Positions 800 to 29,839 of a stretch of DNA of 64,000 nucleotides are shown here, one piece after another. A program made the translations under genes and the position numbers. Source of the stretch: Candidatus Omnitrophota bacterium (GTDB lineage: Bacteria > Omnitrophota > Gorgyraeia > Zapsychrales > Fredricksoniimonadaceae); the NCBI GenBank assembly GCA_037131245.1, contig JBAXRK010000006.1, positions 52,295 to 116,294 of the forward strand, in the 5' to 3' direction. The notes under the pieces are model-generated. The model was not told the origin of the DNA. It did not search any database and worked only from the letters and a program-made list of their open reading frames with translations. Numbering within the stretch: position 1 is the stretch's first letter; every line of letters starts with the position of its first letter.

Positions 800-3568
800 A
801 TGATCCTGCAACGCGTGCTTTTGTTAGTGGCATTCTTTCCCCTCGTTTTATCCTGCGGTGTGGCGCGTGCCGGGGACAATTCCCTTACTTACGATTATTA
901 TTTGAACGAAGGCATCGCGGCGTTTAAGGCTCATCGCGATCAGGTTGCGCTGGATTATTTTAACCGGGCCCATTTTCTTTCACCTGCCGCGGAAGAACCT
1001 CTCGAATATATCAACCTTCTAAAACGGGTTTATGACGGCCGCCTGGAAGATCTTTCCGGTCGCCCTGTTGAAAAGGACCGGGCCCGGGTCATCAGTGACG
1101 CGCTCGACCATTTCGGGGAGGCGGATGTTGCGCCGCAGCCCGGAACAATAAAGCCGGCTCCGGTTGCGGTTGCGGCCAAGCCGGTCAAGAGGCTTGACCG
1201 GGTTACGATCGACGATATTCTTGGCGCCAATCCTGCTAAACCATCCATTCGCCTTGATACCGGGTCCTCGGTTGTTATCGAGGGCAAGGATATCCTGCGT
1301 TTTCTGGTCGTTGATCCTGGATTCTTTACGGTCAAAGCGGAGGGGCGAGATCAGATCAGGGTAGAAGGCTTAAAATGGGGAAGTTCTTTTCTTCATGTAT
1401 GGGATCAGCGTGGCCGTACCACTCTTTATGTGGAGGTCTTTCTGCCGCATGCTTATGAAACACCTGAGGCTCCACAAACAGCCGCTATTGTTGAGCATGC
1501 GCCGCCGTTTCGGATGAGGTACACGCTCGATAACGGGTCTTTTTATTCCGGCCGGGATATGACCCATCTTCGCCGGGGAAGTTCGACCATTCAGGAATCG
1601 GTAGCGATCGACGGCGAAACGCCCTATGGCGCTCTGGACGCTTCTCTTTCGGCCACCGGTTTTGATCCTATTGTTGAAATCCCTACGTACACGCTTGGCC
1701 TCAGCCATATTCCGTTGAAGGGCACCGACGATCTCAACGCGCGGGTTTTTGACGGTTACCGTAGCCTGTCGCCGCTCACCTTGCCCGGCGCGCGTTTGCG
1801 CGGCGAGTTTGTCGACGTGAGGGCCTTTGAGAACATGGTCGGGGTATCGTTGTCTCATGGAGGGTACTTGCCATCGATCAGCTCGCTTTCGCCGGGGCTT
1901 ACCACCACCAGGGACTCTTTTATTGACGCGGTCTCGGTGTCGCTTTTCCCGGTGAGCACGCAGCATCGCTACACGTTGAATTATGCCACCGGCTACGGCA
2001 CCGAGCGCGAACCATATTTGACCCGTAAGGTTTATTCTTTACAGGGAGAGCAGAAGGCGGGGCCTTTTGACCTGAATGCCGAGTTGGCCCGTGATGACCG
2101 TACAACAGCGTCGTTGGCGGGCATCAAGTGGGCGAACGGGTTGGTGCATCAGGGGGTGAATTTTCGCAATATTAACAAGGAGTTCACGACCATTACCGCT
2201 TCGCCCTCGAATCAGGGCGAGATCGGGGCCACCTGGACGACGAACACCAGTACGGATAAATTTTCGGCGGGATCTTTTGTTGACGTGTATCAGGATCGTC
2301 TTTATCCCAATGCTGACGATCCGCAGGCGCTCAACTACGATACGAATGCTCATATCGCCATTCCGTTGGGGCAGTATAGCTGGGATACGTCCGGGCGTTA
2401 TGTCACGACGCCGGGTCAGGCATCCCCCAGGACGTATGCCGGCGTTGATACGCGGCTTTCCCGGGGCTTCCCGGTGTGGGGCGGACGCCGGGGAACGGGG
2501 TATATCGGCGCCAGCGATCAGCTTAGCCGTTTTGAATTCTCGCCGGCTTCTGAGTATGATCGCAATGGGGTGACGGCAGGCGTGCAGGTTCCGTTGACCC
2601 GGTCTATTTCGGGCTTTGCTAATTATGAATATTCCTGGCTTTATGAGAAGCTCACCTCCGACACCTTTCATCCGGCGGTCATGAATGCCGGACTGGCCTA
2701 TAATGCCAATCTGACGGAGAACCTGGTGACGAATCTCGGGTTGACCTATCGCAATGAACTTAATGTTAAGGGTGCCAATAGTTTTCTGGCCGGAGAAGAC
2801 AGCGTCGCCGCCTCGGCCGGACTGACTTATACACCGAAAAAAGATGTAACCTTGTTTTGTGACTCCCGGATGAGAAGCGTCTGGTCGCAGGTTCCCGATG
2901 GTCCTTCTTATAACGACCTGGACCTGCGTTTCGGCATGCGCATGGCTTGGGGGCTGGGCCTGGCTTTTGATCCCCAGGGTACCGTTGCCGGTTTCGTTTT
3001 TAAGGATCGGGACGGGAATAAAGAATTTACGCCTGATATCGGGGGAGTGGCCGGCGATGAAGGGTTGCCGGGGATTAAGGTCAGGATCGGCGATCAGGTT
3101 GCCGTCACGGATGCCCGTGGCTGGTTCTCAATGCCGGTTCGCGCGAGACGGGCTTTGGTTGCCCCGGTCATGGAAAGCCTGCCTCAGGGGTTTGTTTTTT
3201 CAACAGCGGCTTTTGCCAAGGTGGATATTACCCAGGGGCGTACAAAGCGTGTTGATTTCGGTTTGACCACGCAGTCAGGGATCTACGGGGTCGCTTTCGT
3301 GGATGTGAATGGCAATGGCCTGCCTGACCAGAATGACCATTTTATTGCCGGCGTTAAAGTTTTGATGGATGGTAAAGCGGCCCAAGCCACGGATTCCCGC
3401 GGGGCTTATTTTTTCAAGAACGTGATGGATGGGAAACATACGCTTACGATCGATATGAGCGCTTTACCGGCTGGTTATATCCCTCTGGTGAAAGTTAAAA
3501 GTGAGGTGGACGTGGCTGAGGGCACGACCTACATCTTCCATATTCCTCTGAAATACAATCCTAAATGA
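800..3568 (+). CDS. Large outer-membrane protein: signal peptide, TPR-like helix pair, pilus-formation N-terminal (CpaC/RcpA-N-like) domain, long beta-barrel-like region, two C-terminal CarboxypepD_reg/SdrD-B-like Ig domains
   Basis: ATG at 800 gives MILQRVLLLVAFFPLVLSCGVARA|GDN (signal peptide). SIRLDTGSSVVIEGKDILRFLVVDPGFFTVKAEGRDQIRVEGLKWGSSFLHVWDQRGRTTLYVEV matches the secretin-N/pilus_N pattern. A Y/F/G-rich region of alternating strands follows. The C-terminus has GIYGVAFVDVNGNGLPDQNDHFIAGVKVLMDG..TDSRGAYFFKNV..GKHTLTID (Cna-B/SdrD-B-like). The 701 start in the ORF track overlaps the upstream gene and lacks a signal peptide. Confidence 0.65.
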   Translation: MILQRVLLLVAFFPLVLSCGVARAGDNSLTYDYYLNEGIAAFKAHRDQVALDYFNRAHFLSPAAEEPLEYINLLKRVYDGRLEDLSGRPVEKDRARVISDALDHFGEADVAPQPGTIKPAPVAVAAKPVKRLDRVTIDDILGANPAKPSIRLDTGSSVVIEGKDILRFLVVDPGFFTVKAEGRDQIRVEGLKWGSSFLHVWDQRGRTTLYVEVFLPHAYETPEAPQTAAIVEHAPPFRMRYTLDNGSFYSGRDMTHLRRGSSTIQESVAIDGETPYGALDASLSATGFDPIVEIPTYTLGLSHIPLKGTDDLNARVFDGYRSLSPLTLPGARLRGEFVDVRAFENMVGVSLSHGGYLPSISSLSPGLTTTRDSFIDAVSVSLFPVSTQHRYTLNYATGYGTEREPYLTRKVYSLQGEQKAGPFDLNAELARDDRTTASLAGIKWANGLVHQGVNFRNINKEFTTITASPSNQGEIGATWTTNTSTDKFSAGSFVDVYQDRLYPNADDPQALNYDTNAHIAIPLGQYSWDTSGRYVTTPGQASPRTYAGVDTRLSRGFPVWGGRRGTGYIGASDQLSRFEFSPASEYDRNGVTAGVQVPLTRSISGFANYEYSWLYEKLTSDTFHPAVMNAGLAYNANLTENLVTNLGLTYRNELNVKGANSFLAGEDSVAASAGLTYTPKKDVTLFCDSRMRSVWSQVPDGPSYNDLDLRFGMRMAWGLGLAFDPQGTVAGFVFKDRDGNKEFTPDIGGVAGDEGLPGIKVRIGDQVAVTDARGWFSMPVRARRALVAPVMESLPQGFVFSTAAFAKVDITQGRTKRVDFGLTTQSGIYGVAFVDVNGNGLPDQNDHFIAGVKVLMDGKAAQATDSRGAYFFKNVMDGKHTLTIDMSALPAGYIPLVKVKSEVDVAEGTTYIFHIPLKYNPK

Positions 3569-15773: not shown

Positions 15774-15803
15774 TTGACACGCCACACTTTAGTGTGGTAT
15801 AAG
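15774..15803 (+). promoter_or_regulatory. lexA promoter: TTGACA-18 nt-(TGg)TATAAG with an extended -10
   Basis: TTGACA lies at 15774-15779 and TGGTATAAG at 15795-15803. The -10 ends 6 nt before the lexA ATG. Confidence 0.6.
15782..15797. promoter_or_regulatory. Putative LexA operator: perfect inverted repeat CCACACT-TT-AGTGTGG
   Basis: A 7-2-7 perfect palindrome exactly fills the -35/-10 spacer of the lexA promoter, which is the classical position for autoregulation. Confidence 0.5.
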
Positions 15804-15809
15804 TATTGC

Positions 15810-16409
15810 ATGTCAAACGATACCCTTACCGCCAAGCAAAAAGAAGTCCTCAAATTCATCTACGAGCAGATCCGCTTTAAACAGTTAGCGCCGACTATCC
15901 GTGAGATCGGCGAGCGTTTCAATTTTTCCTCTACGGGTACCGTCCGCGATTATCTCAATGCTTTAGTCAATAAAGGCTATATCCGGGTTCAGGAAGGCAA
16001 GTCACGGGCTATTGAGCTGGTTAAAGAGGCTTTGTTCCAGGTGCCTGTTCTGGGACGGGTCCAGGCCGGCCAACCGGTGTACGCCGCCGAAGATCTACTG
16101 GGTTATTTGAACCTTGATCAATTTGTTTTTCCTGATCCTGACGTGTTCGCGTTGAAAGTCCGTGGTTTAAGCATGCGCGATGCCGGGATCATGGATGGCG
16201 ATTTTGTCCTCATCCGCAAGCAGGAACATGCCCAGCCAGGCGAGATCGTGGTCGCGATCATGGGGGAAGAGGCTACTGTCAAGCGTCTTGCCCGGCGAGG
16301 TTCTCAGTTGTTTCTTGATCCGGCCAATCCGGATTTCCAGCCCATCCCTCTTACCGCCGAAGTGTCCATTATCGGCAAAGTCCTCCAGGTTGTTCGAGAT
16401 TACGCATAA
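15810..16409 (+). CDS. lexA: SOS repressor LexA
   Basis: MSNDTLTAKQKEVLKFIYEQI is the wHTH N-terminus, VQAGQP holds the Ala-Gly cleavage site, and the S24 peptidase dyad is present (GLSMRDAGIMDGD ... ATVKRL). The 15774 TTG start in the ORF track is the -35 hexamer. Confidence 0.93.
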   Translation: MSNDTLTAKQKEVLKFIYEQIRFKQLAPTIREIGERFNFSSTGTVRDYLNALVNKGYIRVQEGKSRAIELVKEALFQVPVLGRVQAGQPVYAAEDLLGYLNLDQFVFPDPDVFALKVRGLSMRDAGIMDGDFVLIRKQEHAQPGEIVVAIMGEEATVKRLARRGSQLFLDPANPDFQPIPLTAEVSIIGKVLQVVRDYA

Positions 16410-16422
16410 TACCAAAACCGCC

Positions 16423-16439
16423 GGGCTCTGTTAGAGCCC
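16423..16439 (+). terminator. Hairpin after lexA (GGGCTCT-GTT-AGAGCCC)
   Basis: A 7-bp GC-rich stem lies 14 nt after the lexA stop. The only downstream U-tract is a short GTTTTCT, so it is weak. Confidence 0.4.
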
Positions 16440-16533
16440 AGGAAAGCGTTTTCTCACTTTTCCTCTGTACCTCTTTTATTGCTTATTTATATAGGTTATT
16501 CTTATTCCGGCGAGTGAAGTTGTTAAAACCGGG

Positions 16534-19500
16534 GTGGATATGTTTCAAGATGTTGAGCACAAACAACTTAAGAGATTTATTAGCCTGTTTCTGGCTATTA
16601 CTTTCTCATGTCAATCCGTAGGGATGGCGGATGTTTTTACCGGGGGCCTGCCTCAACCCGGGAGTTTGGTAGCTCTAAGTCCCAAAATTGAGCCGGCTCT
16701 TTTGGCCGGGTTACAGATCGATCCGCAGGATCCTTTCAAGTTCAATTTTTTGATCCGCCGCGCGGAAAGCCCCATTAACGAAGCGGCCAAGCCGGACGAG
16801 TACCGCCGGCTGATCACATATTTTCTCGCTTCACTTACCCTTCCCAATGAAGACATGTGGGTCAACCTTTCTCCGGTGGAACATGACCGGATGATAAAGG
16901 ACAATTTCCGTCATACAGCGATGGGGCGCGATCTGCTCGCGCAGGATTACCTTTTAAAACAGATCACGGCCTCCCTGATCGATCCCGAGGGGGAAACGGG
17001 TAAAGCCTTCTGGAAAAAGGTTTACGCGAAAGCCAGCGAGGTTTACGGGACTTCCGATGTGCCGGTGGATACTTTTAATAAGGTCTGGATCATTCCCGAC
17101 CGGGCGGTGGTCTACGAGAAGAATGACACGGCGGTGATCGTTGAGAGCCATTTGAAAGTGATGCTGGAAACGGATTATGTCCTGGAGAATCAGCGCCTCG
17201 GGCTGGCGGGGGATACAACTTCGTCGCAAGCGTTGGAACCCACGCGCGAACTCTCCAAGCAAGTCATGCGCGATGTGGTCATTCCTGTCCTGGAGAAAGA
17301 AGTTAATGAAGGGGCGAATTTCGCCCGGTTGCGCCAGGTGGCGAGCGCTATGGTCATGGCCACCTGGTTCAAGAAAAGCTTGCGACAGAGCCTTCTGGGT
17401 CGGATGTATACGGACAAGAGTAAGGTCGCCGGGCTTGATGAAGGGCTTGATCAAGGGGATCCGGAGAAGATCTATCAGCTTTATCTTGAAGCTTATCGGA
17501 AGGGCGTTTTTAATTTCATTAAAGAGGAACAGGATCCGGTATCCGGCGAAGATATCCCGAGGAAATATTTTTCCGGCGGTATCCAGGCCCCGGCGCCGGA
17601 TTCAGCCGAGATCATCCACGAAGTTTCTGAAATGTCGCCGCGGCAGAAAGCGAATTTTGAGGCGGTCATTAAATCTGATGTTGTTAAAACGCGCCTGTTT
17701 GATTCCTTAAAAGGGGCGGTGGGGAAAGCCGGGCTTTGGGCCAAGGCGCTTTTTTCCGGCAAGAAGGCACCGCTGGTTTTGCCGGAGCTTCCGACTGAGA
17801 AAGACATCCGTTTAAGCAAACAGTCTTTCGAGATCGATATTCCCGGACAAGGTAAATTTGTTGACCTTGATCATTTTGTGGATGCCCAGAAAAAGGTTCC
17901 CGCTGGCCAGTCGTACGAGGACTTGATCGGGCGGGACGGCTATACCAAGGCCAAGGTCGACGGGATCATCGGGTATGATCCACAGACCGGCGTCAGCACG
18001 TATGAGGATCCGCGCCTCGGGGTGACGCTCTTCGATCAGAGCGGCACACCGCGTCTACGCGGTATAACGGAAGCTATCTCGAATGGGATCGACGCGCTTT
18101 ATCGGGGGATCAATGTTGATTTTATGCGCGGGCAGTTTAGCAAAGGCGTCAAGCAGATCGTGACCTGGCTGGAAGCCAATGGCCAGGACCGGGTTGAGGT
18201 GTATACCCGTCAGGCCAATGGCAAGGCCTATAAGCTGACGATCATCCAGGCGCCCCAAGGGACATATTTTGTTCAGATCATTGAATCTTCGGTTGAGGAA
18301 TTTCAGGCAAGAGCCGGCGATGTGTTAGGGAAGACGATCGAACACGGGACGGTCCTGCGCGTCCTGCCGACGAAAGAGATCCCTCGCACGGATGCGGAGC
18401 TCAAGGGAGAGGCTCTATATTCTTTGGAGGGCCTGGCGCGCGGTATTCAGGGCGTTTCGGGTTTTGTCAGGCATTTTAAGGTTTTCCTGCGAATCGAAGA
18501 TGAGGCGCCGGTCAAAGTGAATGGGTTTCATACGATCGTGGAGCCTGAGGTTGATTCGGTCGGTTCTAGTGAGGTTGACGAGGGGGTTGTCCAGGTCCGT
18601 CTGCGCAAGAACGAGATCGCGGTGGCGGATGAAGGGATCGGGATGGATGCCCGCCCGGTGTCGCGGATGATGGCGCCTGGCTTGGGTGATAAGGATCCTC
18701 GAATCCTCTCGCCTAAAGAGGAGGATGAGGAGTTAAAGAGTTTGATCGTAGGGTTTAAGGAAATAAAAGGCAACAATACGGTGTCTTTTGTCCGCCGGGG
18801 AGAGACCGTCCGTACGGTCAATATCCCGGAGGATGTCCATCCAGAGGCCCTGGTTCCTGATCAGGGGGGGCTGATGATCGACCTGGGGTTGTTGCTGCCG
18901 GTCCAGGAATCGCGCGGCCAGTTCAATTTGACGACTGGCTTTGAAAAAGGCATTCTTCACGCGGTTCGCAAGGTTCTGGAGCTGGAGGGAAAGACCGCTC
19001 AGGACAAGCTGCGGATCATCAATGCGATGGCGTTCGGGCTGGAAGGTCTTGAACCCGGGAATAACTACAACAAAAATCTTGTGACGCACACTTTGAGCGA
19101 GATCCAGAAAATGATCGCTCCGCTGATCGATGAGCTAAAGCAAAGGGGAGAATACGCCTTACTTCCCCATCAGGAGTCGTTTGGGCGGATCAAGCTTCCT
19201 GAAGGAAAAAAGCCCCTTTTTGTCCATTCCAGACTGTTTTCCTGGCGCCCAGGCGATCTGGATGCGGTCGGGGCAAAAGTCCTTCCGGGCCTCAAGGCCG
19301 GCGGGGCCAACCACCTGCCGATCCTGCTGATGCCTTTTACCGATGAAGCACTTAAAGGCGTTTCGCGCATGTCTCTGGCCTGGCACGCCTGGAAAAAAGG
19401 CGATCGCGTGCCGGTCATCAAGACAGACCGTTATGTGGTCGTGCCAGCGCAGATCTTTGAAAGACTAAGAGGTTTGGCTGATAAGAAGAATCGTGAAGAG

Positions 19501-22500
19501 TTGTCGGCCGTTGAACGGATGGAATATTTTGTTTGGGTTCAGCTTCTTAAGATCAAGACGGATGATGAAGGTGTCACGCAGTATGAGGATGCCGCGCCGA
19601 AGCAGTCTCTCGTCGTGGAGGAAAAGAAAACTTTCGAAGGTCCTAAAACGAAAAGGGATGAGAACCTGGCTAAATTACTGGAAGTGCCGCCGGGCCTCGA
19701 AGGGTTGCCGACGGCGCTTCCCGGGCAGCCTCCCGCCGGATCAAGCATGAAGCTTGCGCTTATTGAGAAAACCAATGAGCTTGTCGAGATCGGTACGGGA
19801 CGGCAGGTCATGCAGAATAACGGGGACGGGATCAAAGCGGCCGAACCGCTAACTAATGGCTACTACCTGGTGACGTTTAAAAATGGCGATCAGCAGGCGA
19901 TACAATTGTTGTCTGACCCGAGTAAGCCAGCTTTGCATGAACTTTACAGTAGCATGCGTGCAGAGGTTACTTTGCGGGGCAGGTTGGTCGTGTCTCCCGA
20001 CAAGAATTTCGTTTATCATTTGGGGGTCGATCAGAATGTCGATACTGTTCTGGATATGAGAGAAGGAAAAAGAAAGGTGATCTCCAAGATCATCGGCCGT
20101 CCGCTGGAGAATGCGCTCGATGAGCAGCGGGTTCATGTTAGCCGTGACGGAACGCATCTCTTTGTGGACCGCAGGGATGGCCGGCAGGGTGGTGAAAGAA
20201 AAGGGTATTTGATCGATACCAAGACGTGGCAGGTTGGGCCGTCCGTGCCCTCACACGGCACCATGGAAGTGGAACTTGATCCTGGTGATGCGTTTGTGAT
20301 GAACCCATTGGCGGACGCATTTATTATCCGCCGGGAGAAAACCGGGAAGTTGTGGCTCTTTGATTTTAAGAAGGGTTATGCCGGGGCGCCAGGGTTCGAT
20401 CATATCCGCACGTCTTCCAATGGCGAGTACAGCGTCCTGAAGCTGTCCATCAGCGGTTTTGCGATCTATGACCATATTAACGGAACGTTGAATATGTTGC
20501 CGCCCGATATTAAGGACGTTGTTATTTTAAGTTTTCCCCAGGGGCGGGTTCAGATCCTCGTCAATAATGAGAAAGGAAAAACCTTCAAGTTCCTGCCTTT
20601 ATCAAATCCGGCGACAGAATATGATTATTTGCGGGAGATGAAAGATGGTGATGTCGTGGCCTTGCATCATCAGGCGATATTGACCGAGTATATTAATGAG
20701 ACGGATGTGTTGCTCTCAACCGGCCAGCCAGGTTCTGCCAATTTCATAAAGGATAATTTTCAGGATGGCGTTCTTGAGCCGTCTGTTTATAAACATCCTG
20801 ATCTTGATGTCCTGATCGACCGTCGTGACCCGCAGCATCCCGCGCTTATCGGCCTGTCTGCCGGGGACAGGATCCCCTTTGTGGGTGAGGTCCTTGGCGC
20901 GGATAAAGACTGGGTCGGTGGACGCCTGCCTACGGGACAGTATTACAATTCAAGTTCGGCACGTGGGATCGAGCTGGTTAATGTTCCGGTGCAGGTCGTG
21001 GAGGGTGGGAAAGAATTCTTTCTGATGCATCTTGATCCGGCGGCGCCTGGAGCTCAATATCTACTGGTCAACAGGCATGAGCAGAAACGCATTGTTCTCC
21101 CGGATATCGATGCGGTCAAATATTCACGTGTCATTTTTGACGGAAAATTTTATCTCTTTACTGATCCTTTGACCGGGGATGCGGTCTACCTTGATCCGTC
21201 CCTGCCTGAAGCGCCTCTTGTTGTTCCGGTCAAGGCATCTTCCGATGGCCTGTTCAGGGACCTGGCAAAAGATGTGCCGAGGATCGAGGCGTCGGCAGCC
21301 ACCTGGGATTTGGATCCGGCCTGGGTGCGGAAAGCTCCCTCAGATGACGGGCATGTTTATGAGGTTGTTATGAAGCCCGGCTGGGTTAGGAGCAAGGATG
21401 TTAAAACCCTACAGGAAATGGACGGGTTTGTGGTTGATTCAAAAGGTGATACGAAGATCATTGAGGAGTCATCAAGCGGGCGGATCAGGAAGGCTATCAT
21501 TGATCTTTCGGGAGACAAGATCAATACCGGGCGCCTGGATGTCGGCGAGGATGTCTGGCTATCATCGAGCGGCAATTACGCTTTGTTCAAGAATGAAGCG
21601 GGGAAATATAGCGTTATATCGGATATTAAGAAGAACATGACGACCCATGCCGTAACATTCTCGGTAGAGATCGTCGGCCACCGTATCCTGCCGCAGAGGG
21701 ACATGGTTATTTTCAAGCTGAAGGATGGAACCTACTCTCTTCATGACCTTAAGTCCCCAAGAGCGCCGCTTATTGAAGGGGTTTCGCATCTTGAGGTTAC
21801 ATCCGGCGGCGATATGGCTGTGTTCAAGCGGAACGGAAAACTGTACTTTCTTGACCTGGCTGGTCCTGAGTCTGAGCAGCGTTATATCAAGGTGGATGAG
21901 GGCAAGTCCCTGCGTATCGGCCGGACCAAAGACGGCGGCACGGTCGTTATTGAGACGCCGGATCTTGTCGGTCCGGATTCCTCATTACAGATCTACTGGA
22001 GAGATGGTGGCGGCCGCCTCTTGCCTAGAGGTGCGGGTATAACGCTACGCGAGGTTGAGCTTGCGCAGGAAAAAGGTGAATTCCCGGAACTTTGGGAGTA
22101 TTACGATCTGGGGTCCAAGGCGATCACGGTCGGTCATGTTCGGCCGCCAGGGCTTGAGCCGGCTCTCTATAGTGGAGAGCCTCCGACCATTGGTTCACGT
22201 CAGGAGTTGATCGTGATGGGCTCATGTTATTGGGACCGGAATAGAGCGACACTGACTAGTGAAGCTTCGGGCTTTAGCGTTCAAATGCCCACGATCAATA
22301 TTTTGGAAGGCGATGTGGTGGCGCTGGAAGGTAATAATGTTTTTTATCGTTCTTCACTGCGCGGGCATCTTAGCCGGGGCATGACGGTCGTGATCCCCAG
22401 GAATAGCGGGTATGTTTCTTTTAAGGTTGACGTCGGTTTTGTTTCAACGGATAAGCGCTTTCTGGTTTTCAAGGACTTGGAGACCGGAGAATTGGTGGTT

Positions 22501-25500
22501 GTCAATGAGCAGGGTGAGGTCCGCAAGCTGGCGATCCCTTCTGGATTTAGTCTGGTCGGAACGTATGATGAGCAATTCGTTTTTGGCAATGAGGCTACGG
22601 GGGAAGTAAAGTGGCTCGATCTTAAGGCTGTTTTTGCTGAGGCAAAACCGGCCATGAGCGCGCAGGATAACGAGAAATCGGCCTCGATCCGTCAAGTTTG
22701 GGAATCAAAAGTCCTTTCTCTTCTTGATAACTGGCTGGGCCAGGAAAAAGCCGTTCATGCTGGTTTCTTTGAAGGCGCAACCGCCGAGCTTTCATTCTTG
22801 GCGACGCCTTTGATGGAGAAGCTCGAAAGGCAGCAGGACAAAGAAGTGCGCGAACGCTTTCAGGCCTTCCTGGATAAAGGCAACCCGCAGGATGGCTTGG
22901 ACCTTTCCGGACTGCCTTTGGATCGTTTCGCGGCGCGAATGGCGCTTCTTGCCCCTCTGTTGGGGCCGTATGTTAAAGCGCTTATTGATCGTACTGTTCA
23001 GGATCCGGTTGAGGTTCAAAGATCGTCTATGAGCGACCTGGTAAGAAAACTTTTTGCCTTGCTGTCAGACGATAAAAGAGCCGGAGAGGCGATCGATGAT
23101 GACCTGCTGGAAACGCTATCCCTGGGCTGGGATGTATCCTCTTCCAGAGAATTGGCCACGCGCTTGAAAGCAGCGTTGGTCAAGGCCGATCCGACCATCA
23201 CTTTTGGACGTCAGCGCAAGATCATGTCTTTTCTGGGGAAATTTGTGGCCCGAGCGCCACTGGAAAACGCAAAGATCGTCGAACAGCAGCTTGAGGAGAT
23301 CCTTACCAAGGTCTCCGCGAATGGCACGCCGTATGTGAAGCTGATGATCGATGCTTTTGATCATAAGGACGCGACGGTCGAGAATCTGAGTGGTTTTCTG
23401 ACCGATCCGCTGCGCGGGGGGCTGAAGATCGGGGAGGCCCGCCCCTTTGCGGTATTCCTTACCAATAAGAATGCCAAGCAGGTCCGGGAAGCCGAGGAGC
23501 GTGTGCCGTCGGGGACAGATCTTTTCAAGAAGTCGGTTCGCATTACCCAGACGCAGATGCTGCGTTTCTGGCAGAGGATGATGAAATCTTCCGATGACAA
23601 AAGGCCGGTCATGACGCCCGAGGAACTGGCGGACGCGGTTAACGAAGGCCTGCTGCCGGAGATGACGGAGGCGGATCGTAAAGCAGAGCTTAAGATCATC
23701 AATGATATGCAGAACCAGGCGGAGCCGGGCGCGCATACCCGTGAGGGTGCGGCCAATGCCCGCGATTCTATTTTGAAGTCGGGCCTTCATGGCTTTTTTT
23801 CGCTGTGGTGTTATTTGACCGGTAAGTCGGCTCAGCCGGAGTTTGTGGAAGAATATCGTGATACCGGCGTGGGCGCGCCTTTTCCGATGACCATGGCCAT
23901 GCCGATCTCAAGCAAAGCCGAAGGCGGCCAGGTGGAAACGACCGGGTTCTTCGGTGCCGGCAATCAAACGTTTTTCCGTGATACCGATAAGGTGGTGAGG
24001 ATCACCAGTAATAAGGATGGCGCTTACATGTTCACCTTCGAGCGTGACCTGGAGAATGACACCAAACAGTTCTTCCTGACCGGATTGCGTAAAATTAACG
24101 ACAGCGAACTTGAAACATTATTCGGCGCGGCAAAAACCGGCGTGATCGTCCGGCGCAAGAAGGTTTTGGCGAACAGCATCCCCGAGATCGACCGGATGCT
24201 CGCTGAACGGGCGCTTAAAACGTTCGCTGGCCTGGCCCAGCATGACGGATTTACGATGACGGTCGAGAACGAGAAAGGCGAACCCGAGCCGCTGGAAGTT
24301 GAAGCGAGCATTATCGGCGAAACCGATCTTACCGTAGGGGAGGGAGCCGGGAAAAAGCTCAAGATCTGGCAGACCAAGGATATGCCCTCGCAGATCGTGG
24401 ACAGCAGCGGATACCGGGTGTCGGATATTCCTGAGGAATATCTGACCTATATTCCTATTGAGTTACGCCCCCATATTGAAGAGTTGGGGATCATTATTCA
24501 GGTCCCCATGCCCTTGACGCGCAGCCGTAATGAGTTCGAGGATTATGAGACGCACAAGAAGGAGATATGGAAATCCGTAGCCGTCGCTTTTTACCGGGCG
24601 CTGGCGTATAAAACCATGACCCAGTCGAGCCCGCAATTCAATTTTGAAGGTTATTCTATGGACACCGAGAAAAGCGATGATCGGTCGTATTGGGATAGCG
24701 TGCTCAAGGACAAAGTCGCGTTCAAGCTGGCCGGATTGATCAATGGTGAAAGTTCAAGCGAGATCAGCGAGCAGGATCTGGCGCTTCTGGCCCGTCAGCC
24801 GGATGGCATTTCCAAGGTCAGGCGTTTCGTTAATTTGATCCTTTTACTTAAGGTGGCGATCGACCAAAATAAGCCCGATGTCAAGCAGAGCATCATGGAC
24901 CGCCGGGCCAGGGTTCAGGCGGCGGTCGATCCTGAAGGCGCGGCCAGGCACAAGTCTTTATTTGCCGACAGGGGGTATTCTTTTCAGTCGGATGCCGTTG
25001 TCCCTGAGTTTGAGGCCAAGGTATCGACCGGCCGCACGATGGTGACCGGGCATGAACAAATGAAAGACCCGGGTAAGTTTGTTCTTGATCGCGCGTTAAC
25101 TCCCGCTGAGCAGGAATTGGCACATCTGGCGGGCGTGATGGCCGCGGCGGCTGGTGTTGAGCAGGTCCTTCTGATCGAGGGCACGGCTTTTGCCGGCGCA
25201 TTTAAGCTTTACAAAGGAAAGCGCACCATGTTCCTGACCCGGACGCTGGCGGATAAGGTGCCTGACCCGGAAGCGAAGAACGGCATTATCGAGGATCGTG
25301 TTGATACAGTGATCCACGAGTTGGCGCATTTGCTGGAAGGCTTTATTGCCGCGGGGGACGCTGACACGGTTTGGAATGTCGGGTTCCTGGCTCCGGAGGA
25401 TCATGAGACCGAGACGCGTACCCATCAGGCCAAAGGCCTATTTACGGACGCGATGCAGTATCTGGCCGGTGTGGCTGCTTTTCATCTGGCTGGGATGGAT

Positions 25501-25746
25501 GATTGGCTCACAGCGGATCCTGTGATCGTGACGCCCCTTGTCGAACAGGCCGCGGAAGCTGATCCGTTCGGTGGTATTGACCTTAATGAAAAGCATCTGG
25601 ACCTTCAGATCCAACGCGAGGGGGACGGCATATCGCTTGACGTATCCAACCAGCCCGAGGAGTTGATGAACATCCAGGGGCTTTCACCTGAGATTCTGGA
25701 GATCGCGCCGCTTGATCCTGCCACAATGATGATCTTCAACCATTGA
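16534..25746 (+). CDS. Giant exported multi-domain protein (3,070 aa), function unknown; contains a GHKL-type ATPase motif set, propeller-like repeats and an HExxH motif
   Basis: The ORF runs uninterrupted for 3,070 codons from GTG 16534 (the alternative ATG 16540 is preceded by GGGGTGG). The N-terminus KQLKRFISLFLAITFSCQSVGMA|DVF looks like a Sec signal. Internal motifs are detailed under findings. Confidence 0.8.
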   Translation: MDMFQDVEHKQLKRFISLFLAITFSCQSVGMADVFTGGLPQPGSLVALSPKIEPALLAGLQIDPQDPFKFNFLIRRAESPINEAAKPDEYRRLITYFLASLTLPNEDMWVNLSPVEHDRMIKDNFRHTAMGRDLLAQDYLLKQITASLIDPEGETGKAFWKKVYAKASEVYGTSDVPVDTFNKVWIIPDRAVVYEKNDTAVIVESHLKVMLETDYVLENQRLGLAGDTTSSQALEPTRELSKQVMRDVVIPVLEKEVNEGANFARLRQVASAMVMATWFKKSLRQSLLGRMYTDKSKVAGLDEGLDQGDPEKIYQLYLEAYRKGVFNFIKEEQDPVSGEDIPRKYFSGGIQAPAPDSAEIIHEVSEMSPRQKANFEAVIKSDVVKTRLFDSLKGAVGKAGLWAKALFSGKKAPLVLPELPTEKDIRLSKQSFEIDIPGQGKFVDLDHFVDAQKKVPAGQSYEDLIGRDGYTKAKVDGIIGYDPQTGVSTYEDPRLGVTLFDQSGTPRLRGITEAISNGIDALYRGINVDFMRGQFSKGVKQIVTWLEANGQDRVEVYTRQANGKAYKLTIIQAPQGTYFVQIIESSVEEFQARAGDVLGKTIEHGTVLRVLPTKEIPRTDAELKGEALYSLEGLARGIQGVSGFVRHFKVFLRIEDEAPVKVNGFHTIVEPEVDSVGSSEVDEGVVQVRLRKNEIAVADEGIGMDARPVSRMMAPGLGDKDPRILSPKEEDEELKSLIVGFKEIKGNNTVSFVRRGETVRTVNIPEDVHPEALVPDQGGLMIDLGLLLPVQESRGQFNLTTGFEKGILHAVRKVLELEGKTAQDKLRIINAMAFGLEGLEPGNNYNKNLVTHTLSEIQKMIAPLIDELKQRGEYALLPHQESFGRIKLPEGKKPLFVHSRLFSWRPGDLDAVGAKVLPGLKAGGANHLPILLMPFTDEALKGVSRMSLAWHAWKKGDRVPVIKTDRYVVVPAQIFERLRGLADKKNREELSAVERMEYFVWVQLLKIKTDDEGVTQYEDAAPKQSLVVEEKKTFEGPKTKRDENLAKLLEVPPGLEGLPTALPGQPPAGSSMKLALIEKTNELVEIGTGRQVMQNNGDGIKAAEPLTNGYYLVTFKNGDQQAIQLLSDPSKPALHELYSSMRAEVTLRGRLVVSPDKNFVYHLGVDQNVDTVLDMREGKRKVISKIIGRPLENALDEQRVHVSRDGTHLFVDRRDGRQGGERKGYLIDTKTWQVGPSVPSHGTMEVELDPGDAFVMNPLADAFIIRREKTGKLWLFDFKKGYAGAPGFDHIRTSSNGEYSVLKLSISGFAIYDHINGTLNMLPPDIKDVVILSFPQGRVQILVNNEKGKTFKFLPLSNPATEYDYLREMKDGDVVALHHQAILTEYINETDVLLSTGQPGSANFIKDNFQDGVLEPSVYKHPDLDVLIDRRDPQHPALIGLSAGDRIPFVGEVLGADKDWVGGRLPTGQYYNSSSARGIELVNVPVQVVEGGKEFFLMHLDPAAPGAQYLLVNRHEQKRIVLPDIDAVKYSRVIFDGKFYLFTDPLTGDAVYLDPSLPEAPLVVPVKASSDGLFRDLAKDVPRIEASAATWDLDPAWVRKAPSDDGHVYEVVMKPGWVRSKDVKTLQEMDGFVVDSKGDTKIIEESSSGRIRKAIIDLSGDKINTGRLDVGEDVWLSSSGNYALFKNEAGKYSVISDIKKNMTTHAVTFSVEIVGHRILPQRDMVIFKLKDGTYSLHDLKSPRAPLIEGVSHLEVTSGGDMAVFKRNGKLYFLDLAGPESEQRYIKVDEGKSLRIGRTKDGGTVVIETPDLVGPDSSLQIYWRDGGGRLLPRGAGITLREVELAQEKGEFPELWEYYDLGSKAITVGHVRPPGLEPALYSGEPPTIGSRQELIVMGSCYWDRNRATLTSEASGFSVQMPTINILEGDVVALEGNNVFYRSSLRGHLSRGMTVVIPRNSGYVSFKVDVGFVSTDKRFLVFKDLETGELVVVNEQGEVRKLAIPSGFSLVGTYDEQFVFGNEATGEVKWLDLKAVFAEAKPAMSAQDNEKSASIRQVWESKVLSLLDNWLGQEKAVHAGFFEGATAELSFLATPLMEKLERQQDKEVRERFQAFLDKGNPQDGLDLSGLPLDRFAARMALLAPLLGPYVKALIDRTVQDPVEVQRSSMSDLVRKLFALLSDDKRAGEAIDDDLLETLSLGWDVSSSRELATRLKAALVKADPTITFGRQRKIMSFLGKFVARAPLENAKIVEQQLEEILTKVSANGTPYVKLMIDAFDHKDATVENLSGFLTDPLRGGLKIGEARPFAVFLTNKNAKQVREAEERVPSGTDLFKKSVRITQTQMLRFWQRMMKSSDDKRPVMTPEELADAVNEGLLPEMTEADRKAELKIINDMQNQAEPGAHTREGAANARDSILKSGLHGFFSLWCYLTGKSAQPEFVEEYRDTGVGAPFPMTMAMPISSKAEGGQVETTGFFGAGNQTFFRDTDKVVRITSNKDGAYMFTFERDLENDTKQFFLTGLRKINDSELETLFGAAKTGVIVRRKKVLANSIPEIDRMLAERALKTFAGLAQHDGFTMTVENEKGEPEPLEVEASIIGETDLTVGEGAGKKLKIWQTKDMPSQIVDSSGYRVSDIPEEYLTYIPIELRPHIEELGIIIQVPMPLTRSRNEFEDYETHKKEIWKSVAVAFYRALAYKTMTQSSPQFNFEGYSMDTEKSDDRSYWDSVLKDKVAFKLAGLINGESSSEISEQDLALLARQPDGISKVRRFVNLILLLKVAIDQNKPDVKQSIMDRRARVQAAVDPEGAARHKSLFADRGYSFQSDAVVPEFEAKVSTGRTMVTGHEQMKDPGKFVLDRALTPAEQELAHLAGVMAAAAGVEQVLLIEGTAFAGAFKLYKGKRTMFLTRTLADKVPDPEAKNGIIEDRVDTVIHELAHLLEGFIAAGDADTVWNVGFLAPEDHETETRTHQAKGLFTDAMQYLAGVAAFHLAGMDDWLTADPVIVTPLVEQAAEADPFGGIDLNEKHLDLQIQREGDGISLDVSNQPEELMNIQGLSPEILEIAPLDPATMMIFNH

Positions 25747-25786
25747 TTGTGTGTCCCGGATCTTTTATGGTAATATATTCCTCATT

Positions 25787-26650
25787 ATGACAGCTCCCGC
25801 AGATGAAACATTCAACGGTTTGTCCGCCAAAGAGTGGACGCTATTAAGTAAAAATGTCTGGAACGATCTCAGCTCGCCCCGTCAGTCGCATCATTTATTG
25901 CATGGCGCGACCTTCCCATTGGCTTTGGCTGAAAGGGTCGTTAGCCTTTATTCCGGTAAAGGGGATATTGTTTTTGATCCTTTCGCTGGCATCGGCACCA
26001 CCGTGATCGCGGCCTCAAAACTGGACCGTGTCGGCATCGGCATTGAGCTTCAGGAACAGTTTTGCAAGCTGGCGACCTCGCTCATCGATAAAGAGAAGAT
26101 GGACCTCTTCAGCGACAAGCAGTCGGTCCGTCATGAAGTCATCTGCGATGATTGCCGGGCGCTTGACAAACATTTGTATTCCAACTCGGTTCAGCTTACA
26201 TTGACCGCGCCGCCGTATCCGGATATGGATACTCGTCCGCCGAAGTCCAAAGGCCCCGGCCGGCCGCGCAAGAGCGACCTGGTGGGAGAAATGTCTGAAC
26301 GGGTCCCGGCGCACAGTTTACGGCAGGATGATTTCGGCAATTTCGGCTATGCGATGTACCTTGAAGAATTGGCGCGGGTTTTCAAGAAAGTCCTTCATGT
26401 TACACGCGATGGCGGGTATAGTATCTGGGTTATTCGTGACCAGCGTGACACGCACAATGGTGCTCAGTATGTGCCTGTTCATTCGGACATTATTAATCTT
26501 GGTGTGGCGGCGGGATGGCGGCATCATGACCTGATCGTCTGGGACCAGAACGATCAGCGTCGTTTGATGTTGCTGGGATATCCCAATGTTTTTTATTCCA
26601 ATTTGAATTGTTCGTACCTGGTGGTCTTTCGTAAGCCTAAAGATAAATGA
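25787..26650 (+). CDS. SAM-dependent N4/N6-type DNA-methyltransferase-like protein with atypical APPY motif IV and an AT-hook-like insert
   Basis: HGATFPLALAERVVSLYSGKGDIVFDPFAGIGTT contains motif I, DRVGIGIELQ is motif II, and VQLTLTAPPYPD is motif IV. GPGRPRKS is AT-hook-like. ATG 25787 is preferred; GTG 25751 is possible. Confidence 0.75.
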   Translation: MTAPADETFNGLSAKEWTLLSKNVWNDLSSPRQSHHLLHGATFPLALAERVVSLYSGKGDIVFDPFAGIGTTVIAASKLDRVGIGIELQEQFCKLATSLIDKEKMDLFSDKQSVRHEVICDDCRALDKHLYSNSVQLTLTAPPYPDMDTRPPKSKGPGRPRKSDLVGEMSERVPAHSLRQDDFGNFGYAMYLEELARVFKKVLHVTRDGGYSIWVIRDQRDTHNGAQYVPVHSDIINLGVAAGWRHHDLIVWDQNDQRRLMLLGYPNVFYSNLNCSYLVVFRKPKDK

Positions 26651-27057: not shown

Positions 27058-27564
27058 ATGGTGTTAGCGTTCGGTCTTTTGGTCATCGGTGTTCTTTCCC
27101 GTTTCTTGCCTCATGCGGCGAATTTTTCGCCGGTCGCGGCGATCGCCTTGTTTGGCGGCGTTTACTTGCGTCGTTCGCAGGCGTTGTGGCTGCCGTTGGC
27201 GCTAATGGCTGTTTCCGATCTGTTCCTGGGGCTTCATGCCACGATCCCGTTTACCTGGGGGAGCATGTTCCTGGTTTCCCTGATCGGTTTATGGGTGAAG
27301 ACGAACGCCACGCCGTTACGGATGATGTCCGGTGCTTTGGCGTCCGCGTTCTTGTTTTTTGTGGTGACGAATTTCGGCGCCTGGCTGACACTTTACCCGA
27401 GGACCATGGAGGGATTCGTCCAGTGTTATACGTTGGCGATACCGTTCTTCCGGATGTCACTGGTCAGCACGCTTTTTTATAGTGTTCTTCTTTTCGGAGC
27501 TTATGATCTTTTCGCCCGCCGATTCAAGGGGACGAAGCTCGAAACTGTTCTTTTAAGGAAGTAA
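27058..27564 (+). CDS. Small polytopic membrane protein (DUF6580-like putative transporter)
   Basis: An AGGAGG RBS is present. The protein has 5-6 TM segments. I recall the motif PHAANFSPVAAIALFGGVYL from a family of putative vitamin/cofactor transport proteins; this is not verified. Confidence 0.5.
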   Translation: MVLAFGLLVIGVLSRFLPHAANFSPVAAIALFGGVYLRRSQALWLPLALMAVSDLFLGLHATIPFTWGSMFLVSLIGLWVKTNATPLRMMSGALASAFLFFVVTNFGAWLTLYPRTMEGFVQCYTLAIPFFRMSLVSTLFYSVLLFGAYDLFARRFKGTKLETVLLRK

Positions 27565-27575
27565 TTCTTTTCGTA

Positions 27576-27700
27576 TTTTGTCAGGGGAACCGTGTGTGAA
27601 TCACGGGCAGTTGCGCTACTGTAACGCGGGCCGTTGTTGCGGCCCTCGAAGCCAGAATGCCTGAAAGGTACTTAAAGCATCGATGCTGCGCACAACAGCA
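27576..27700 (+). promoter_or_regulatory. Cobalamin (B12) riboswitch
   Basis: The core is GGGGAACCGUGUGUGAAUCACGGGCAGUUGCGCUACUGUAACGCGGG. The B12-box-like element is GAAGCCAGAAUGCCUG. It lies directly upstream of a TonB-dependent receptor. Confidence 0.8.
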
Positions 27701-27725
27701 GACGAGGCGCATATATTTTATGATG

Positions 27726-27782
27726 CCCTTTGTTTGTAAGGACGCGCTAAGCGCTTCTTATGGACAAAGGGTTGTTTTTTTA
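27726..27782 (+). terminator. Intrinsic terminator forming the B12 riboswitch expression platform
   Basis: The outer stem CCCTTTGT (27726-27733) / ACAAAGGG (27764-27771) encloses an inner GCGC-TAA-GCGC helix and is followed by TTGTTTTTTT. It lies 15 nt upstream of the btuB-like ATG. Confidence 0.7.
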
Positions 27783-27796
27783 TCAGGGAGACGGAG

Positions 27797-29839
27797 ATGA
27801 AAAAGGGATTGATGTATTTGGGGGTGTGCCTGCTTGTAGCCAGTTCTGCGGACGTGTATGCCAATGATGTTGAAGATCTCGGTCGTGTCGTGGTGACGCC
27901 GTATCGATACGGCGAAGACCTTGACAAAGTGGCGGGCAGTGTGACGGTCATCACGCGGGAAGATATCGCGCGTTCGAACGCGACACGGGTCATTGACGTG
28001 CTTAGGGTTGTACCCGGGTTGACCGTTAAAGATTATTATAGCAACGGCACGCAGGCCGGGGTGGATATGGGCGGGTTCGGGGAGCAGGGTTTGCTCAATG
28101 TCCTGGCCCTGGTGGACGGCCGCAGGATCAATGATGTTGATCTCAACGGTGTCGATTGGAGCCAAGTCCCGTTGGACCAGGTGGAACGTATTGAAGTGAT
28201 CCGGGGTGGAGCGTCAGGCGTCCTGTATGGCGACAATGCTTCCAGCGGGGTTATTAATATCATCACGAAACGCGGTGCCGGCAAATCGCATGTGGACATC
28301 AAGACCTCTTATGGCAGCTATGCCTATAACGCTCAGAAAGTAACGGTGTCGGGAGGAACGGGCAAGGCGTCGTATTTATTCAGCGGCGGGCATGATGCGA
28401 CCAATGGGTATCGGAAGAATGCTTTTAGCAAGGCGGCGGACCTTTCTTCAAAAATTTCTTATGATCTGACAGATGTGGTCACCTTGCGCGTGGATGCGGG
28501 ATCTCATACGGGGTTGTACGGGATGCCGGGAGCTCTCTGGCAAAACCATATTGACGCTAACGACCGGCGCTATTCCCGCTACGGCGACGATAAGGCCAAG
28601 ACCCGTGATTTCTTCTTTCTTACCGGAGGGGATATCACGTTCCTGGGTAACGGCAAGCTCTCGCTTGATATCAGCTGGCGCCACAAGAATACGGACGCAT
28701 TTTTTTTGAGCTCGGGGAACCCGACCCGCAGGAATGTGGCCGATACGTATGGCTTTACGCCGAAATACACTCTGGATTCGACGGTCCTGGGGCATTGTAA
28801 TAAATTTATTTCGGGCATTGACCTGTACCGCACGCTTTTCCGGTCGCGTGAATACGATAAGTCTGATGATAATACGTTGCAGGATTACACCAATGTTAAC
28901 AAGGTGTCGGTGGCGGGTTACGCGCAGGATGAATTCTCGATCACCGATCCTCTGGTATTGGTGGGAGGCTATCGTTATGAGGCGGCTCGTTATACATTCG
29001 GGTACCACGATAACAACACGACGTCGTTTGGCCATCCCTATGTCGATCAAGATTCTAAATTGATCACCAAGGCGAGAGCGATCGATTCAGGGTTGGTCTA
29101 TCACTATGGTGAAGGCTCCAGTGTTTTTAGCAATATTGGGACCAGCTTTCGTTTTCCGGAAGTTGATGAGTTCACGTTTCAGGACGCCAGCTATCAGCAG
29201 CAGCTGGATACTTCTTTAAGGCCGCAGACCTCCGTGAACGGCCAGGTTGGTGTGAGGCATCAATTCACGGAAGGTCTTAAAGCCGAGGCATCCGTATTCC
29301 GGATGAATCTTCATGACGAGCTTTATTACAATGCCAACGGCGGCCCGGCCAATGCCGGCAAAAATGAAAATTACGACCGCACCGTTCATCAGGGAGTTGA
29401 GACTTCTGGCGAGATACGGTTGACGCGATGGCTTTCGGCGACCGGAAATTATTCGTATACGCGGGCGTCTTTTAACGGCGGCGTGTATGACAAGAATGAT
29501 ATTCCACTCGTGGCAAGGCATAATGCCAGCGTCGGGTTAAGGTCGGCGTTGTCCAAAAGTCTTTCCCTGGACCTGGTCGATTCTTATGTCGGGCGACGGT
29601 ATGTGCTTAATGATCAGGCCAACACGCAGGGCAGGGTTAACGGGTATTTGGTCCTGGATTCGGGATTGACCTGGAGTGCCGGACAGACGACAGCCAGGCT
29701 TGGTGTTAAGAACTTATTGGACAAGAAGTATTCAGAAATGGCTGGTTACGCTTTTAACATGTCTACTTTGGCGTCGGATCGTTTCTATTATCCCAGCGCC
29801 GGCCGGAGTTTTATGTTAACGATCGACCATCGTTTTTAA
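27797..29839 (+). CDS. btuB: TonB-dependent outer-membrane receptor (BtuB-like, B12-riboswitch controlled)
   Basis: It has a signal peptide, a TonB box (GRVVVTPYR), a plug domain (VTVITREDIARSNATRVIDVLRVVPGLTV; IEVIRGGASGVLYGDNASSGVINIITK) and a C-terminal barrel ending ...GRSFMLTIDHRF. Confidence 0.88.
   Translation: MKKGLMYLGVCLLVASSADVYANDVEDLGRVVVTPYRYGEDLDKVAGSVTVITREDIARSNATRVIDVLRVVPGLTVKDYYSNGTQAGVDMGGFGEQGLLNVLALVDGRRINDVDLNGVDWSQVPLDQVERIEVIRGGASGVLYGDNASSGVINIITKRGAGKSHVDIKTSYGSYAYNAQKVTVSGGTGKASYLFSGGHDATNGYRKNAFSKAADLSSKISYDLTDVVTLRVDAGSHTGLYGMPGALWQNHIDANDRRYSRYGDDKAKTRDFFFLTGGDITFLGNGKLSLDISWRHKNTDAFFLSSGNPTRRNVADTYGFTPKYTLDSTVLGHCNKFISGIDLYRTLFRSREYDKSDDNTLQDYTNVNKVSVAGYAQDEFSITDPLVLVGGYRYEAARYTFGYHDNNTTSFGHPYVDQDSKLITKARAIDSGLVYHYGEGSSVFSNIGTSFRFPEVDEFTFQDASYQQQLDTSLRPQTSVNGQVGVRHQFTEGLKAEASVFRMNLHDELYYNANGGPANAGKNENYDRTVHQGVETSGEIRLTRWLSATGNYSYTRASFNGGVYDKNDIPLVARHNASVGLRSALSKSLSLDLVDSYVGRRYVLNDQANTQGRVNGYLVLDSGLTWSAGQTTARLGVKNLLDKKYSEMAGYAFNMSTLASDRFYYPSAGRSFMLTIDHRF

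Follow-up and report, generated by a model that had tools for sequence, protein, structure and literature searches.

Why would a protein that bears a signal for export also bear the residues of an ATP-binding site? The question is raised by a very long open reading frame (ORF) on the plus strand of a 64,000-nt stretch of the Candidatus Omnitrophota contig JBAXRK010000006.1 (hereafter the window). The ORF ends at position 25746 and encodes a giant protein of 3070 or 3068 aa, depending on whether translation starts at a GTG (16534) or at an ATG (16540). The ATG is preceded by a Shine-Dalgarno-like GGGGTGG element and is the start chosen in the public gene call, while the residue numbers used here are those of the 3070-aa GTG version. 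Sequence comparison and structure prediction indicate that residues ~2385 to 2778, here termed module B, very probably constitute a two-domain GHKL ATPase module of the GyrB/Hsp90/MutL type with nucleotide binding as its predicted function. The features of the protein are listed in Table 1.

An earlier note, made from the letters of the DNA alone, had read three motifs of the Bergerat fold (N-box, G1 and G2) and a further G3-like element in this region. All four elements were found exactly where that note had placed them in GTG numbering, with 35 aa from N2408 to D2443 and 28 aa from D2443 to G2471. The ordered pattern E...N[AG].D-(20-60)-D.G.G-(15-45)-G..G.G occurs a single time in the giant protein and arose in one case when the residues of the 3070-aa sequence were shuffled 20,000 times, a frequency that can serve only as a rough guide since the pattern was defined after the motifs had been seen. 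For this reason, conservation among relatives is the stronger argument.

Relatives were collected by an exhaustive phmmer search of 1.84 billion cluster representatives with a 450-aa query. This search returned 95 relatives, 63 of them with E < 1e-30, and the match spans the whole query. Nearly all are longer than 1,000 aa (almost all 1,000-7,700 aa), and most belong to Candidatus Omnitrophota. A word-indexed homology search with the module B fragment or its alignment found nothing, and neither did a scan of a genome collection (one genome per species) with the single fragment. When an alignment of eight sequences was used as the query for the same collection, the 35-sequence alignment being too diverse for seed patterns, 37 related loci were obtained. 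Of these, 19 are labelled Omnitrophota and the others Ratteibacteria, Elusimicrobiota, Margulisbacteria, 'Planctomycetales', a few Patescibacteria and others. No further copies of module B were found elsewhere in the window.

The family consensus, E..QNS.DA / vEEa.DNGTGAL / STK / GFFGTGKYTIF / GVTVRRIK, is more canonical than the motifs of the window sequence itself. In the 35-sequence alignment (A1), N2408, D2411, G2447, K2461, G2471, G2474, G2476 and G2536 are invariant, and half of the invariant columns are ATP-motif positions. E2404, D2443 and G2445 are conserved in at least 90% of the family, and the G1 positions D2443, G2445 and G2447 are kept in 98, 95 and 98%, respectively, of 62 other members. 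In the second domain, R2665 is 98% conserved and R2663 is common. The window copy retains 38 of the 44 family-conserved positions, among them all expected ATP-site residues (E2404, N2408, D2411, D2443, G2445, G2447, K2461, G2471, G2474, G2476 and R2665). The loop that reads PLPLIRNR in the family is PMPLTRSR in the window, with R2663 and R2665 encoded at nt 24520-24528; it resembles PLNLSRE, which we take to be the catalytic-loop motif of Hsp90. The ATP-site residues are thus strictly conserved although the sequences are only ~40% identical overall, which suggests that nucleotide chemistry is under selection.

Sequence profiles point to the Hsp90 side of the GHKL superfamily. The A1 profile gave 52 matches at E ≤ 10 among PDB sequences, of which 51 belong to the Hsp90 family (best E = 1.9e-5), and its alignment pairs the N-box, G1, STK and G2 elements with ELISNASDA, DSGIGM, SGTKAF and GQFGVGFYS of yeast Hsp82. 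A search of the PDB sequences with module B as a single sequence returned noise only. Pfam scans of individual members detected HATPase_c_3 in 8 of 35 and SACS in 2 of 35. At E values up to 1, the NCBIfam model of a sacsin N-terminal ATP-binding-like domain was matched by 18 of the 35 members (best E = 6.8e-5), that of the 'HSP90 family protein' by four and HtpG by one (E = 0.049). No match to Pfam PF02518 (HATPase_c) was found for module B in the window or in the 35 members, the PDB profile search gave no histidine-kinase signal, and the Pfam HSP90 model was not matched by the whole giant protein. On these profiles, the nearest sequence relatives of module B are those of the Hsp90/sacsin branch.

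The AlphaFold2 model computed on A1 was confident (pLDDT, the predicted local distance difference test, 87.2; pTM, the predicted template modelling score, 0.87), and its confidence is low only in the lid that separates G1 from G2. In model numbering, the N-box lies in a long helix (16-31), G1 at the end of strand 52-59 and G2 at the start of helix 91-97, the preceding residues 71-90 having the lowest confidence. The invariant G2536 of G3 is located on beta strand 152-160, as expected for this element, which reads GVTVRR in the family and GVIVRR in the window. A Foldseek search of the PDB with the model yielded 310 matches at E ≤ 1e-3, and the best 50 of these 310 are all GHKL ATPases with a probability of 1.00. 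The top matches are Hsp90/TRAP1 (2e-10), followed by MORC2/3/4, MutL LN40, SMCHD1, TopoVI-B and GyrB. The alignments extend over ~360-460 columns and hence cover both the ATP-binding domain and the transducer-like domain that follows it, as present in the two-domain fragments of Hsp90, MutL LN40, MORC and GyrB 43K. The Bergerat fold proposed in the earlier note thus agrees with family conservation, with the Hsp90 profile match and with the predicted model, which matches Hsp90, MutL and MORC, the structures that the note had named for comparison. The preference of that note for Hsp90, MORC and sacsin over histidine kinases was likewise borne out: the PDB profile matches are almost exclusively Hsp90, the sacsin model is the one found in about half of the members, and Hsp90/TRAP1 and MORC head the fold matches.

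Compared with Hsp90 itself (HtpG, TRAP1, GRP94, Hsp82), module B shares all four ATP motifs and their order, the lysine of its lid (STK) pairs with that of SGTK, and Hsp90 is its best fold match over the ATP-binding domain and the next domain. It differs in that it is only ~12-14% identical to the Hsp90 family, is located at residue ~2400 of a 3068-aa exported protein and lacks the C-terminal dimerization domain, in place of which an HExxH domain follows. Sacsin (NCBIfam NF047352, Pfam PF25794) is the named sequence model matched most often, yet weakly, and the window sequence does not match it. Like the giant protein, sacsin is very large and has more than one Hsp90-like module. However, sacsin is cytosolic and eukaryotic with co-linear repeats, whereas the giant protein has a signal peptide and one module in which the motifs appear reordered (see below). 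The two-domain fold of MORC, SMCHD1 and MutL, a GHKL domain with an S5-fold transducer, is matched with Foldseek E values of 1e-9 to 1e-7, in addition to the HATPase_c_3 matches mentioned above. In contrast to these proteins, the module B family is exported and shows no conserved genomic tie to restriction-modification or defence, and no DNA-binding or CW-type accessory domains turned up in the scans run.

Neither the fold nor the chemistry of module B is new, while the family itself is absent from the Pfam and NCBIfam libraries. It passes no threshold in either, and the relatives that were looked up are hypothetical proteins or are named for other domains; one of them (P0004) carries the NCBI name SpoIIE-family phosphatase. 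Module B defines an unannotated family that is almost confined to signal-peptide-bearing proteins of more than 1,000 aa in Candidatus Omnitrophota and a few neighbouring uncultured lineages.

Several points weigh against this assignment or limit how far it carries. Neither the full-length window protein nor a 380-aa fragment of it has a relevant Pfam or NCBIfam match, so that the profile check suggested in the earlier note holds for family members, which match the HATPase_c_3, SACS and sacsin models, and fails for the window sequence alone. The profile ties to Hsp90 and sacsin are modest (E ~1e-5). The structure of module B is a prediction, and the placement of its motif residues around one pocket rests on the residue alignment with Hsp82. 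The window copy and its closest relative (P0002) depart from the family at Q2407A and at the threonine of G3, which is isoleucine in the window copy, and P0002 has in addition lost the first glycine of G1 (DTAGG). We know of no ATP pool in the periplasm or outside the cell, which sits badly with a Sec signal. The analysis shows the motifs, their family conservation, the predicted fold, the family placement, the signal peptides and the co-occurrence of domains, whereas ATP binding and hydrolysis, dimerization, clamp action, a partnership of domains, the site of action and delivery into another cell are inferred. Our confidence in where and on what module B acts is much lower than that in its being a nucleotide-binding module of the GHL type.

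A second domain of this kind probably lies closer to the N-terminus. Module A, within a conserved block of aa 470-1050, has the invariant elements EAxxNxxDA (513-521), IGQFGKGVKQ (533-541), GT (605-606) and DNGxGM (699-704), so that all four GHKL motifs are present, in the order N-G2-G3-G1. BLASTP detected no similarity between modules A and B, and a profile-profile comparison related them over the G2-to-G3 stretch (probability 84%, E = 8e-6). In its native order, the module A profile matched HtpG over the G1 segment only (E = 2.8e-4) and TRAP1 in two out-of-order pieces, with 22.7 bits at best and 11 matches at E ≤ 10. Transferring the G1 segment of every aligned sequence to a place between the N-box helix and G2 gave a profile that matched HtpG, TRAP1, GRP94 and Hsp90-alpha in one co-linear piece each, across N-box, G1 and G2 (best E = 8.3e-8, 35 bits, 149 matches at E ≤ 1), with the restriction that the rearrangement was chosen post hoc and that the two profiles are unequal in length. 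The gain in co-linear coverage is hard to explain otherwise. The AlphaFold model of module A (pLDDT 85.6) contains the full eight strands, with the G1-bearing pair coming last, and Foldseek, a sequential aligner, matched it only to TRAP1 (9e-6 to 7.5e-4) and TopoVI-B (0.019). Judged by these profiles and the model, module A is most likely another Bergerat domain of the Hsp90-like kind, one in which the connectivity has been rewired. To our knowledge, it would be the first Bergerat domain with such a non-canonical order.

Modules A and B belong to a fixed trio, with module A upstream and an HExxH-containing module C directly after module B. Module A is present in 39 of the 41 relatives that are long enough and module C in 56 of 63, and from this co-occurrence we conclude that the three modules travel together. 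Module C is a putative zincin-like metallopeptidase domain, on account of its HExxH signature and of hints, all below threshold, to Peptidase_MA_2, Tox-MPTase3, ATLF, Zincin_1 and 3e11. One Omnitrophota metagenome-assembled genome (MAG), JBGAJA01, has two paralogous copies of the whole architecture (L027 and L028) on two large contigs. Behind the trio, some relatives carry additional domains that depend on cofactors, namely a canonical HATPase_c domain in P0017 (E = 6e-25) and an HD domain and an S-adenosylmethionine (SAM) methyltransferase domain in P0007, which has TPR repeats as well; P0013 is also among these members.

According to coverage from the relatives, the giant protein has three conserved blocks, aa 50-350, aa 470-1050 and aa 2050-3000. 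The first corresponds to the N-terminal domain of the mature protein, which is common to ~17 relatives and matched no family in Pfam or NCBIfam. The central third (~19680-22680, aa 1050-2050) is poorly conserved and gave only a weak PQQ_2 or beta-propeller-like match (aa 1147-1217, E = 0.004); in relatives, this place is taken by TPR or HEAT repeats, which suggests a spacer or binding region that varies. At the C-terminal end, a GGID[LF] motif occurs in 26 of the 95 relatives, ~55-140 aa from the C-terminus, and is followed in many of them by ..GLTPVI..ITPV.NLP.FLG. The tail had no match in NCBIfam and may be a sorting or anchoring tag, as far as its sequence suggests.

Export of the giant protein is supported by its N-terminal sequence. 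The hydrophobic core of the signal peptide comprises 10 residues, and cleavage is likely to occur between VGMA and DV. Almost all relatives with an intact N-terminus share this layout, with signal peptides ending in FAQ, YAQ, ANAQ or AMA, and the conserved mature N-terminus LPxPG...PF.F.F starts a few residues after that end. No other transmembrane-like segment was seen in the window protein. The earlier note had found an ATP-dependent module puzzling in a protein with a Sec signal and had offered two ways out, action after delivery into another cell or an N-terminal anchor with an unusual topology. The presence of Sec-type signal peptides in the protein and its relatives makes this a puzzle of the family.

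How module B would work can be outlined by analogy with Hsp90, MutL and MORC, the mechanism of which is established. ATP-Mg would be bound in the pocket by N2408 (Mg), D2443 (adenine) and K2461 together with the G2471-G2476 loop (phosphates), and the flexible lid at ~aa 2455-2474 would cover the nucleotide. The attacking water would be activated by E2404, and R2665 or R2663 from the second domain would serve as the sensor of the gamma-phosphate. The nucleotide state would then be converted into a clamp-like movement that is passed to the flanking domains, possibly via pairing with module A. GHL ATPases work as dimers of ATP domains, and since modules A and B are obligately part of one chain, they might pair with each other. 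Such an intrachain clamp would correspond to the pairing between chains in Hsp90, MutL and TopoVI-B. Given the export of the protein and a periplasm with no ATP pool that we know of, the module most plausibly acts where ATP exists, for instance on or within a cell of a host or prey, which is speculative and the weakest step of the scheme. Action on other cells would fit published proposals that Omnitrophota long proteins are extracellular effectors (bioRxiv 10.1101/2023.11.21.568195; bioRxiv 10.64898/2026.06.07.730766). Taken to its end, this scheme describes an exported two-headed Hsp90-like machine, in which modules A and B form an asymmetric pseudo-dimeric ATP clamp that drives the HExxH domain, as an ATP-gated effector at or in host or prey. 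In this complete form we consider it a rather improbable picture.

Module B could also be a pseudo-ATPase, in which the fold has been kept as a nucleotide-independent structural, dimerization or holdase element of an exported protein that never meets ATP. Signal peptides across the family, a conserved C-terminal tail suggestive of surface sorting and the substitutions in the clade of the window sequence are in line with this idea, and eukaryotic extracellular Hsp90 has been reported to act without ATP. However, among 35-64 sequences that share ~40% identity, the catalytic glutamate, the Mg-binding asparagine, the adenine-binding aspartate, all glycines of G1 and G2, the lysine of the lid and the arginine from the second domain vary in no more than 10% of the members or not at all. 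Such conservation is not expected after the loss of nucleotide binding, and the window copy retains every one of these residues. We therefore regard a pseudo-ATPase as unlikely, and a nucleotide-binding module B as the better reading.

A different way out of the topology puzzle is that the hydrophobic segment at the N-terminus escapes cleavage and serves as an anchor, or goes unused, so that the bulk of the protein is cytoplasmic and the ATPase operates in the producer cell. Domains typical of the cytoplasm do occur in relatives (the HATPase_c domain of P0017, the HD and SAM methyltransferase domains of P0007), and according to a 2026 preprint, many Omnitrophota long proteins are predicted to be membrane-anchored with a cytoplasmic bulk (bioRxiv 10.64898/2026.06.07.730766). 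The sole hydrophobic segment of the window protein is, however, short (~10 residues), with Lys/Arg before it and a small-residue cleavage motif after it. This layout recurs in the relatives, in which AQ or AxA immediately precedes the conserved start of the mature protein, the positive-inside rule places the bulk outside, and a second transmembrane segment is missing from the window protein. A cytoplasmic location of the bulk appears quite unlikely to us, and we continue to read module B as part of an exported protein.

The earlier note had further suggested a link to DNA modification and defence, in which a MORC-like ATPase would act with the methyltransferase-like gene downstream. This gene (25751-26650) starts only 5 nt past the stop codon of the giant ORF, and MORC structures are among the good fold matches of module B. 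The match of the gene product to the N6_N4_Mtase model is confined to the SAM-binding end, and the product has a motif I, VFDPFAGIGTT, followed by an atypical TAPPY in place of D/N/S-PPY. However, tblastn found relatives of this gene in none of the 37 related loci, no conserved neighbouring genes were present at these loci beyond the synteny shared with the closest relatives, and PADLOC gave no significant match for 35 family members. Moreover, the giant protein is exported away from the DNA of the cell, and the sequence affinities of the family are with Hsp90 and sacsin. The link to defence did not hold up: the methyltransferase gene is a coincidental, unrelated neighbour, and a role of module B in DNA modification or defence is very improbable. 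The chance of the motifs having merely come together in a very long protein without a Bergerat fold, for which one could cite the missing Pfam and NCBIfam matches of the window sequence and the empty word-indexed search, is negligible and was ruled out by the shuffle test, the family-wide conservation of the motifs, the Hsp90 profile match and the confident model with its fold matches.

Table 1. Features of the giant protein and its gene (nucleotide positions in the window; residues in GTG numbering unless stated otherwise).
Feature	Position (nt)	Strand	Residues (aa)	Sequence or basis
Giant ORF	16540..25746	+	3068 aa from ATG	identical to NCBI MEI6437840.1, 'hypothetical protein', Candidatus Omnitrophota MAG
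Sec-type signal peptide	16540..16629	+		n-region KQLKR, h-region FISLFLAITF, c-region SVGMA; read from sequence
N-terminal domain of mature protein	16645..17613	+	38-360	conserved; LPxPG...WVNLSP...MGR.LL..DY.LKQ...LKVMLE.DY...RKYFSGG
Module A, probable Bergerat part	17995..18744	+	488-737	conservation, profiles, model
Module A N-box	18070-18096	+		EAISNGIDA
Module A G2-like	18130-18156	+		GQFSKGVKQ
Module A G3	18346-18351	+		GT
Module A G1	18625-18648	+		ADEGIGMD
Module A C-terminal part (beta-sheet and helical domains)	18745..19569	+	to 1012	conserved together with Bergerat part
Region before module B, apparently helical	22681..23685	+		conserved; part of block aa 2050-3000
Module B, predicted Bergerat-fold ATP-binding domain	23686..24237	+	2385-2568	motifs, family conservation, predicted model
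Module B N-box	23740-23769	+	2403-2412	REGAANARDS
Module B G1	23857-23880	+	2442-2449	RDTGVGAP
Module B lid segment, low confidence			~2455-2474	contains K2461; between G1 and G2 region
Module B G2	23941-23976	+	2470-2481	TGFFGAGNQTFF
Module B G3	24133-24156	+	2534-2541	KTGVIVRR
Module B second domain (transducer / middle-domain-like) and helical end	24238..24867	+	2569-2778	
Module C, putative zincin-like domain	24871..25533	+	2780-3000	invariant HELxH..E and T-H; HELAH at nt 25315-25329
C-terminal tail, candidate tag	25570..25743	+	last ~58	starts GGIDLN; motif recurrence

The giant gene is surrounded by ordinary chromosomal genes, with FKBP, DsbD, a thioredoxin-like protein and LexA upstream and the methyltransferase-like gene, RidA, DUF6580, a TonB-dependent receptor and MetH downstream. 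The LexA repressor gene (15774-16409) lies directly upstream, and a hairpin in the spacer (16421-16441) has a terminator score on the minus strand. The DUF6580 and TonB-dependent receptor genes (27058-29839) are syntenic with a related locus (L022:13355-16358), which has no relative of the methyltransferase-like gene of the window.

In the two preprints, Omnitrophota long proteins are described as having signal peptides or membrane anchors together with enzyme-like domains (bioRxiv 10.1101/2023.11.21.568195; bioRxiv 10.64898/2026.06.07.730766), and the histidine-kinase/HSP90-like ATPase domain PF02518 is named among the common domains in the 2026 preprint (bioRxiv 10.64898/2026.06.07.730766). 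The giant protein comes from the same phylum and is very long as well, with 3,068 aa compared with 10,000 aa and longer for the giants featured there. Term searches of both preprints returned generic mentions of PF02518 (HATPase_c) only, with neither the A-B-C trio nor the reordered module among the hits, and no pertinent publication came up in literature searches on a permuted Bergerat fold or on GHKL proteins that are secreted. Relative to the libraries and papers searched, the family, its restriction to signal-peptide-bearing long proteins, the trio and the motif order of module A are new.

A previously nameless block of ~400 residues, which recurs in roughly one hundred clusters of long proteins from Omnitrophota, is now a recognized domain, and alignments A1 and A4 could seed family models for its annotation. 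If confirmed in three dimensions, module A would be an unusual example of rewired connectivity within a fold that has been studied intensively and is a drug target. The functions of Omnitrophota long proteins are largely unknown, and the proteins are suspected to take part in attachment to or attack on other cells. For these organisms, a conserved, predicted ATP-hydrolysis site in a Sec-exported protein poses a concrete puzzle, which is widened by the extra cofactor-dependent domains of the relatives, that is, by enzyme domains of the cytoplasmic type on exported proteins. Most likely, either ATP is present where these proteins act, and they would then act in or against another cell, or the topology predictions are wrong, or the site binds another ligand.

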